From Nitrosopumilus sp. (lineage in GTDB: Archaea > Thermoproteota > Nitrososphaeria > Nitrososphaerales > Nitrosopumilaceae): a stretch of 64,000 bases of DNA. The first letter of the stretch is position 1. Each line of letters starts with the position of its first letter. A program made the translations under genes and the position numbers. The stretch is taken from assembly GCA_965205215.1 (NCBI GenBank), contig OZ242041.1, positions 992,001 through 1,056,000 of the forward strand, written 5' to 3'. A model generated the notes under the pieces. The model searched no databases. It had not been told where the DNA came from and saw only the letters and a program-made list of their open reading frames with translations. Below are positions 60,945-62,366 of the stretch, piece after piece.

Positions 60945-61013
60945 CTGCTGCTGCTGCTGCTGCTGCTGCTGCTGCTGCTGCTGCTGCTGTTGTTGTTGTT
61001 GTTGTTGTTGTTG
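60945..61013. repeat. (CTG)15(TTG)8 microsatellite, left flank of IS110
   Basis: Counted directly. Confidence 0.95.
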
Positions 61014-61033
61014 AACGCATGTAAACCTCCGGC

Positions 61034-61160
61034 TTCAAGCAGCGCCGTTGGCTGACCCCTACCCACACATGGCACATGATGCCTTGTTGTTGAATGGGGC
61101 GATCCGAGCTGCGGCGATAGTGGGGCACGACCCCTGATAGATGGGTGCAGCTTCCAGCCT
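61034..61160 (+). ncRNA. Putative bridge/seek RNA of the IS110 element (ends approximate)
   Basis: Two stem/internal-loop/hairpin units; loop segments ACCCACACA (61061-69) and TTGTTGTTG (61084-92) match the target flanks, ATAGATG (61137-43) matches the element's right end. Confidence 0.8.
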
Positions 61161-61189
61161 ACAAAGTGAAAGAAAAGGGAGGTGAGAAA

Positions 61190-62266
61190 GTGAAAAGCAT
61201 AGGAATCGACATCGGAAAGAAGAGATGTGTCTATTGCATACTGAACGAGGAGGGGGCGATACTTGAAGAATCAAGCTACGCCAACACAGTGGCCGACGCG
61301 CGCGCAGTGGCAGATAACGTGACGGCAAGATACGGCGCGTGCCAGGCCGTCTGCGAGTCCACCGGAAACATGTGGCTGAAGACGTACGAGGAGTTTGAGA
61401 AGGGCGGCATCCCGATCAAGCTTGCAAACCCGCTCAAGACAAGGGCCATAGCGGAGGCGAGGATAAAGACGGACAGGCTTGATGCAAGGATTCTTGCCCA
61501 CCTGCTGAGGACCGAACTCGTGGCGGAATGCCACGTGCCCGCGTCACACATACGCGAACAGAAACAGATCCTCAGGCACAGGGAGAGCCTGGTGCAGGAC
61601 AGGACCCGGGCGGCAAACAGGATACACAGCCTGCTTGACAGGTACGATCTTTGCATGCCCAAGGCAGGTAGCGGCATTATGGGCGCGGCCAACATGAAGT
61701 GGCTCGAGGGACAGATGCTTCCGTCGGAGCACAGCAACCACGTGATGCGCCAGTCCCTCAGACAGATACGACAGATCAGCCGCGACATAAGACAGCTTGA
61801 GAAGACCGTCGACAGGATGGCCCTGGACAACGAGGACGCCAGAAGGATAATGAGCCTGACAGGGTTCAATTCCTTCGGGGCCCTGCTGATAGCGCTGGAG
61901 ATTGACGGCATCGGGAGGTTCCCCACGCCCAGGCAGCTCGTGTCGTGGATGGGGGTGTGCCCGACCATACACCAATCCGGAGACACGCTGCACCACGGGA
62001 GGATGAAGAAGGACAGCAACAGGAGGGTGAACTGGATGATGATACAGGCTGCGCAGACCGCCTCGTTCAAGGACGAGAGGATGAAGGCAGTCTATGAGAG
62101 GGTGAGAAAGAACCACCCGCACGGAATTGCCGTAAGCCACGTGGCAAACAAGATGGCGACGATAATCTGGCACATGCTGACGTCAAAGACGCTGTACGAG
62201 CAGAGAAAGGATGCGCTCTACAAGACAAAGCTTAAGAAGATAGCAAAGCAGAGGAACACAGGCTGA
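61190..62266 (+). CDS. IS110 family DEDD recombinase/transposase
   Basis: GIDIGK, CESTG, KTDRLDA, C-terminal PTIHQSG serine motif, ANKMATIIW.ML; GTG start after GGAGGTGA. Confidence 0.95.
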   Translation: MKSIGIDIGKKRCVYCILNEEGAILEESSYANTVADARAVADNVTARYGACQAVCESTGNMWLKTYEEFEKGGIPIKLANPLKTRAIAEARIKTDRLDARILAHLLRTELVAECHVPASHIREQKQILRHRESLVQDRTRAANRIHSLLDRYDLCMPKAGSGIMGAANMKWLEGQMLPSEHSNHVMRQSLRQIRQISRDIRQLEKTVDRMALDNEDARRIMSLTGFNSFGALLIALEIDGIGRFPTPRQLVSWMGVCPTIHQSGDTLHHGRMKKDSNRRVNWMMIQAAQTASFKDERMKAVYERVRKNHPHGIAVSHVANKMATIIWHMLTSKTLYEQRKDALYKTKLKKIAKQRNTG

Positions 62267-62313
62267 AAGTAACCAGGATGGCCGTGGAACGACGCCGCCG
62301 GAGTTTACATAGA

Positions 62314-62366
62314 TGTGTGGTTGTGTGGTTGTGTGGTTGTGTGGTTGTGTGGTTGTGTGGTTGTGG
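62314..62366. repeat. (TGTGTGGT)6 octamer repeat, right flank of IS110
   Basis: Six exact copies 62314-62361 plus a partial copy. Confidence 0.95.

Follow-up and report, generated by a model that had tools for sequence, protein, structure and literature searches.

An IS110-family insertion sequence with IS1111-type ends and a predicted upstream two-loop guide RNA between two microsatellites of a Nitrosopumilus genome

We analyzed a stretch of 64,000 nucleotides from Nitrosopumilus sp. (contig OZ242041.1, positions 992,001 to 1,056,000; hereafter the window), which carries an IS110-family element at 61014-62315, 1302 bp long when the right-hand core dinucleotide TG is counted. In our reading this is very probably an intact, single-copy IS110-family insertion sequence (IS) with IS1111-type ends, a DEDD/Ser recombinase and an upstream two-loop bridge (seek) RNA, and the microsatellites on both sides of it are an incidental context and not a class of targets. 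Comparison with related elements shows that the first loop of the predicted RNA matches the two halves of the insertion site and that the second loop, in the same polarity, matches the two ends of the element. An earlier interpretation made from the letters alone (the sequence-only reading) had described an archaeal IS110 element with a bridge-like RNA whose guides are made for simple-sequence repeats, an abundant and self-renewing target class. The family assignment, the two-loop RNA, the assignment of the loop strands and the site that they specify held up in our analysis; the proposal of microsatellites as a target class did not, given that there is one copy and that one of 14 (TTG)≥4 tracts is occupied.

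The 358-residue recombinase contains both domains of the family, PF01548 (DEDD_Tnp_IS110; E 7e-31, 107.5 bits) and PF02371 (Transposase_20; E 3e-19, 69.7 bits), and its relatives in the Protein Data Bank (PDB) are the transposases of ISCro4 and IS621 (E ~1e-10). The segments IGIDIGK, cESTG, KTDRLDAR and hQSGD align with IGIDVSK, mEATS, KTDAVDAR and yESGS of ISCro4, which preserves the D / E / D..D / S-G pattern of the catalytic motifs. By our own reading, these would correspond to D11/E60/D102/D105/S241 of IS621 (numbering from PMC11208158; this and the other papers cited here are used for the parts of their text that were available to us). The borders of the element were taken from the sequence and from the ends of its relatives. 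The sequence-only reading had drawn it at 60945-62366, a span that takes in both microsatellites. The subterminal inverted repeat is 14 bp long with one indel (8/8 plus 9/10 arms) and reaches 12/12 in the L012 clade; the left extension before it is AACGC (5 nt), or TGAACGC (7 nt) with the core. The same core dinucleotide is found at both ends in 28 of the 31 relatives in which both ends are visible (TG/TG in 25, AG/AG in 3). Excision of the element in silico leaves ...TTGTTG directly followed by TGTGGTTG..., and the non-coding DNA of the element measures 176 nt upstream of the recombinase gene versus 47 nt downstream.

The predicted RNA lies in this upstream region. Both helix/loop units drawn in the sequence-only reading were recovered, in the single-sequence minimum free energy (MFE) fold as well as by RNAalifold on 35 relatives. 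Run unaided on these relatives, RNAalifold returned helices P1-P4 with 16 pairs, 7 of them showing compensatory changes. When a five-helix structure of 27 pairs was laid over the 35 distinct RNAs, 88.1% of the cells were paired, against 34-53% in controls whose partners had been displaced by 1-3 columns; 115 cells carried changes on both sides, against at most 32 in these controls; and the covariation score was 0.335, against at most 0.144 in the controls. None of 500 shuffles attained the observed score. In metagenome loci, a covariance model built for the family, R1, detects 12 further RNAs at E ≤ 1e-12, each located ahead of the recombinase gene. An Rfam scan of the upstream region at E ≤ 10 returned no relevant family. 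On this comparative evidence, the predicted structured RNA is real at the level of the family. In one relative, L069 (1303-1429), the linker that separates the two loops contains a run of 13 G and, in addition, a purine-rich insert.

In the window's copy, TTGTTGTTG of the target loop equals the left flank plus core at 9/9 positions; the leading TT belongs to the family scaffold, and the variable guide comprises the last 7 nt only. The opposite strand, ACCCACACA, fits the right side at 8/9, the donor strand ATAGATG fits the right end at 7/7, and the other donor strand fits weakly (4/6), all as the sequence-only reading had assigned them. The element sits at the site that its own target loop specifies, with 7/7 on the left and 8/9 on the right, and the chance of at most one mismatch to the 14-nt programmable target is P = 1.2e-7 per position. 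The positions of these and the other features are given in Table 1.

Table 1. Features of the element and its flanks in the window (16 rows; positions count from the first letter of the window).
Feature	Position	Strand	Basis or remark
Left flank microsatellites	60945-61013	.	(CTG)15 at 60945-60989, then (TTG)8 at 60990-61013; Tandem Repeats Finder
Left target plus core, GTTGT-TG	61007-61013	.	Final 7 nt of the left flank
Left core dinucleotide TG	61012-61013	+	Sequence
Insertion sequence, 1302 bp	61014-62315	+	Sequence, family ends, empty-site contigs
Left subterminal inverted repeat, ATGTAAAC(C)TCCGGC	61019-61033	+	Arms 8/8 and 9/10; family comparison
Bridge/seek-type RNA (predicted), ~120 nt, two internal loops	61043-61165	+	Covariance model R1, 113.6 bits, E 9e-26
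RNA outer stem, GGCTG / CAGCC	61050-61054 / 61155-61159	+	R1, covariation
P1, CCCC / GGGG around hairpin 61071-61083	61056-61059 / 61096-61099	+	Single-sequence MFE, RNAalifold
Target loop 5' strand, ACCCACACA	61061-61069	+	Reverse complement of core plus right flank, 8/9
Target loop 3' strand, TT-GTTGTTG-AAT	61084-61095	+	GTTGTTG (61086-61092) equals left flank plus core, 7/7; pairs with bottom strand
P3, GAGCTGC / GCAGCTT around hairpin 61122-61134	61106-61112 / 61147-61153	+	Single-sequence MFE, RNAalifold
Donor loop 5' strand, GGCGATAGT	61113-61121	+	Against left end, 4/6
Donor loop 3' strand, TG-ATAGATG-GGT	61135-61146	+	ATAGATG (61137-61143) equals right end plus core, 7/7
Recombinase, 358 aa, GTG start	61190-62266	+	Only long open reading frame (ORF); preceded by GGGAGGTGA at 61177-61185
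Right subterminal inverted repeat, GCCGGAGTTTACAT	62297-62310	+	Followed by 3-nt extension AGA, then core TG at 62314-62315
Right flank microsatellite, (TGTGTGGT)6.5	62314-62365	.	First unit is core plus right target; Tandem Repeats Finder

The correspondence between guides and flanks was examined in a family set of 38 insertions with 35 distinct upstream regions, drawn from the genome, genus, contig and metagenome scans reported below and aligned to one another. Left borders in this set were placed by an end motif that is independent of the guides and right borders from the subterminal repeat; an end motif was used to set six right ends by hand, and seven elements have no visible right end. 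The 3' strand of the target loop (7 nt) matches the left flank (5 nt) plus core at 7/7 in 22 elements, 6/7 in 13 and 4-5/7 in 3 (n = 38). Read as its reverse complement, the 5' strand (9 nt) matches the core plus right flank (7 nt) at 8 or more positions in 9 elements, 6-7 in 12 and 5 or fewer in 10 (n = 31), that is, at least 6/9 in 21 of 31. Three of the low values come from a register displaced by one base, and tolerating one such shift raises the count to 24 of 31. As for the donor loop, its 3' strand matches the right end (5 nt) plus core at 7/7 in 25 of 31 elements, and its 5' strand (6 nt) matches bases 1-6 of the left end at 5/6 or better in 25 of 38. When flanks or ends were shuffled among the elements, the observed sums were reached in 0 of 20,000 permutations for each of the four strands; the loop strands covary with flanks and element ends. 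The bases AA(T) after the left guide equal the first bases of the element, and the corresponding comparison of AAT with the element start was reached in 6378 of 20,000 permutations; this match can be called no more than handshake-like because AAT hardly varies among the relatives. Outside the set, a left flank is visible for 11 of the 12 new metagenome RNAs (five of these flanks were read by eye), with matches of 7/7 in nine, 6/7 in one and 5/7 in one.

Several observations weigh against this account of guided insertion. The window RNA folds alone no better than its shuffles (z = -0.16), and no RNA sequencing runs containing the locus are listed. The window's copy itself has one mismatch to its right target and a donor 5' strand that fits the left end at just 4/6, while the paralogue ISx2 and the relatives L041 and L083 match the right flank at 4/9 only. 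The placing of six right ends with an end motif favours the donor 3' statistic, and since related elements are not independent, the permutations for the donor loop partly reflect co-inheritance. Strict guidance is also at odds with the copies of the element, ~97% identical, that appear in the sequencing runs X3, X4 and X7: on the right, they are flanked by DNA that is unlike that of the window, is not its microsatellite and matches the predicted right target at only 4/7, 4/7 and 1/7, respectively. All three copies have C61062T, and the one in X3 has A61065C as well, changes that fall within the target 5' strand. Either half-matched insertion is common or the short-read contigs mislead; the result would agree with the insertion at half-matches that has been described for IS621 (10.64898/2026.08.31.748434, in the part available).

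Could the guide matches be chance likeness of low-complexity, G/T-rich DNA, and the upstream region merely a leader? The flanks of the window's copy are indeed of low complexity, its fold alone is not significant and no Rfam family covers it. The matches, however, recur in the same alignment columns of 38 + 11 insertions, most of them without low-complexity flanks, they covary with the flanks, and the RNA helices covary as well, which leaves this explanation extremely unlikely. A different possibility is that the guides have been selected to recognise simple repeats, so that microsatellite junctions would be an abundant, self-renewing and low-cost target class. Both half-sites are tandemly iterated beside the element, with (TTG)8 on the left and, on the right, units of TGTGTGGT that each amount to core plus right target; 119 short arrays (period ≤ 12, at least 4 copies) are present in the 2.1-Mb genome; and similar (CTG)n(TTG)n...TGG arrays exist at other genomic places. 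Against this stand the single genomic copy and the failure to find a copy above 67% amino acid identity in 151 genomes of the genus or, among the metagenome loci scanned, above 60%. Of 14 (TTG)≥4 tracts in the genome, one is occupied, and (TGTGTGGT)n is found at this site only. After excision in silico, the genome contains no perfect 14-nt target site and four sites with one mismatch (about 0.5 per genome are expected by chance), namely the occupied one, C1:958362, C1:946572 and 952768; the latter three are not microsatellites but non-repeat DNA, two of them in paralogous coding sequence. The sister copies in the three other runs have non-repeat right flanks, and the GTTGTTG-type left guide also occurs in relatives with non-microsatellite flanks (L045 and the L012 clade); these occupy ordinary DNA and in most cases have other transposase genes next to them. 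We therefore regard selection for repeats as quite unlikely. A related view, in which the microsatellite junction is the true programmed target and the half-site arrays serve as a landing pad whose junctions are made and lost by slippage, would make the clade an evolutionary intermediate of IS110 and IS1111; we consider this, too, unlikely.

It is also conceivable that the element entered one non-repetitive or short-repeat site and that the half-sites were expanded later by slippage, perhaps favoured by the element or its RNA. Both arrays directly abut the element, as such an expansion would have it, and the comparison with related populations bears on the same point. Four sequencing runs were compared as contigs only, so that parts without cover are not evidence, and a repeat mask at 60936-61019 hid the left junctions. 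In two of the four (X3 and X7), one contig each runs from 60935 to 62388/62390 across only 74-75 nt; the same interval measures 1452-1454 nt in the window and 150 nt once the element is subtracted. These contigs represent an empty allele of the site in related populations; in X7 the flanks have a depth of 428-512 versus 10-20 for the element. The empty alleles are thus shorter than the window's flanks by about half, but in this strain unique sequence accounts for ~30 of the 75 nt, and an empty allele that kept it would retain ~45 nt of other, probably repetitive, sequence. In addition, length polymorphism is normal for microsatellites, and (CTG)n(TTG)n arrays are present at other loci without any element. 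Expansion after insertion is, in our judgement, very unlikely. We return to the reading given at the outset, that of an intact IS1111-type element whose microsatellite surroundings are incidental.

Some further observations belong to the repeats and to the runs. The sites C1:946572 and 952768 were considered as ends of another element and rejected, both lying within paralogous coding sequence. Other arrays rich in CTG/TTG/TGG are found at window 35003-35069 (C1:1027003-1027069), C1:1706358, 1883078 and 192973, for example (TTGTTGTGGTTG)5; their opposite strand reads CAG/CAA/CCA, and several may therefore encode Gln/Pro-rich tracts. In the literature, we found no paper that joins IS110, microsatellite and bridge RNA. 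The contigs of the runs compared reported neither joints nor the circle junction. In X7, a contig at a depth of ~1120 (host flanks ~430-510) shares only 61090-61124 (35 nt) with the window, with unlike loop sequences on both sides, from which we read that the dominant X7 population may carry a sister RNA with other guides. In X1, the recombinase gene is covered 2-5x as deeply in its 3' half (window 61739-62274) as in its 5' half, on short contigs with unlike ends, which suggests partial copies or a related gene of another organism in the sample. Among 41 genomes searched for an orthologous empty site, five gave just partial matches of 67-86% to the flank on the side of the HNH endonuclease gene, and these provide no usable synteny.

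In its ends and in the order of its guide strands, the element resembles the IS1111 type, and this, together with the subterminal repeats and the terminal extensions, had gone unnoticed in the sequence-only reading, as had the fact that they are not of the IS621 type. In the available part of Siddiquee et al. 2024 (PMC11187229), IS1111-type seekRNAs are described with the complement of the top strand 5' of the match to the bottom strand, and the elements with subterminal repeats of 11-13 bp and extensions of 7 and 3 bp. With ISEc11, ISKpn4 and ISPa11 of that type, the window's element shares the DEDD transposase, subterminal repeats, 7/3 extensions, RNA strand order, target specificity and a reprogramming that has occurred naturally among relatives. 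It differs in that its RNA is located upstream of the gene, whereas the long non-coding region is typically downstream; its loops, moreover, are both simple internal loops, and its host is a thaumarchaeon. The same source mentions a few IS1111-type members with an upstream non-coding region, such as ISMtsp17. From the strand order, the 14-bp repeat and the TGAACGC/AGA ends, we therefore place the element in the IS1111 type, within its upstream-RNA minority, an assignment set by ends and RNA. The bottom-strand match on the 5' loop strand and the repeats of 0 or 2-3 bp that mark the IS110 group (IS621-like) are replaced here by the reversed order and 14 bp. We had taken the reversed guide polarity for a new 'mirrored' architecture, and this was dropped, the order being characteristic of the IS1111 type (PMC11187229, part available).

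With the IS621 bridge RNA, as described in the accessible parts of Durrant et al. 2024 (PMC11208160) and Hiraizumi et al. 2024 (PMC11208158), the predicted RNA shares its upstream location, a target-binding and a donor-binding internal loop, the pairing of each loop with opposite strands of two half-sites that overlap at the core dinucleotide, and additional bases behind one guide that correspond to the other partner (handshake-like). If the frame is turned by 180 degrees, the window RNA also agrees with IS621 in its strand lengths (9 nt; 7 nt + 2-3). The polarity relative to the element is reversed, the core is TG (AG in three relatives) instead of CT, the subterminal repeats are long and the two recombinases are no more than remote relatives (E ~1e-10). 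The IS1111-type elements IS4321/IS5075 and IS1383 home to the terminal repeats of other transposons, according to titles cited in PMC11208160, and relatives of the window's element likewise lie 47-224 nt from transposase genes, although no other mobile element adjoins the copy in the window. All seven flank ORFs tested beside relatives (flanks of L012, L013, L017, L043, L079, L087, L075 and L009) are other DDE transposases at these distances, five of the IS5/IS4 type (PF01609/PF13737) and two of the IS66 type (PF03050), and the clade thus seems to home to other insertion sequences. Members of the clade may already figure in the element catalogues of PMC11208160 and PMC11187229.

The element has one copy in its own genome, and no near-identical copy, above 67% amino acid identity, was found in that genome, the 151 genomes of the genus, the genome contigs or the metagenome contigs. 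Its paralogue ISx2 (L009, L010; 43% amino acid identity) is present there in two identical copies, C1:682082-683152(-) and 685267-686337(+), which stand head to head ~2 kb apart, each with its own two-loop RNA. The left guide of ISx2, TTCGACCTG, matches the two left flanks at 7/7 and 6/7, the right guide reaching the 4/9 given above, and an IS66-type transposase ORF is found 47 nt from one of the copies. R1 also detects two decayed family members, at C1:692245-692386(-) with 64.6 bits and at 1576775-1576896(-) with 62.7 bits; the recombinase start that follows each of them is broken or truncated, and the latter retains a 6/7 match to its left flank. Across the genus, 17 of the 151 genomes match at E ≤ 1e-60, the best non-self match being L041 with 67% amino acid identity and one TGA. 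This closest relative (1086-1318) directly follows four 34-nt direct repeats spaced by 65-67 nt, a CRISPR-like array. The scan of genome contigs gave 19 loci, of which the 15 closest have 39-53% amino acid identity and are mostly labelled Nitrososphaerales, Thaumarchaeota or Nitrosopumilus/Nitrosopumilaceae, with one on a 1.8-kb contig filed under a bacterial bin; the scan of metagenome contigs gave 33 loci, none above 60%. A tblastn search of plasmids returned 667 records, all below 60% identity and labelled merely 'IS110 family', which are no help in separating the IS110 from the IS1111 group.

On the chromosome, the element is flanked by two minus-strand genes, one for an HNH endonuclease and the other for an NHL/RTX-repeat protein, and the insertion site is therefore intergenic. 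The right terminus TTTACATAGA (62303-62313; TTAACATAGG and TTATCATAGG in relatives) resembles an outward-pointing archaeal TATA box, and it also belongs to the subterminal repeat. In a circle, such a box could act as a junction promoter ~40-50 nt upstream of the RNA.

By analogy with the work on IS621 and ISEc11, a complex of recombinase and RNA would pair the circular element, its ends joined at TG, with the chromosomal sequence GTTGT-TG-TGTGGgT, and circle and chromosome would then recombine at TG. Such a target would have existed here only where the (TTG)n and (TGTGTGGT)n tracts meet, which would make the microsatellite context incidental to one guide-directed insertion in this strain. As judged from the sequence comparison, the element would follow a mechanism that is already known, guidance by bridge/seek RNA as in the IS1111 type, whose upstream-RNA exception has likewise been reported (PMC11187229, part available). 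Microsatellites fail as a general targeting strategy, and the interest of the element now rests on its archaeal clade and its mixed architecture. With comparative support, bridge/seek-RNA-guided transposition would extend to archaea of the ammonia-oxidising type, in a compact system of a ~120-nt RNA and a 358-residue recombinase with natural guide variants in 35 + 12 distinct RNAs. In this clade, ends of the IS1111 type are combined with a two-loop RNA upstream of the gene, a combination relevant to the question of how the RNA gene moved from one end of such elements to the other.

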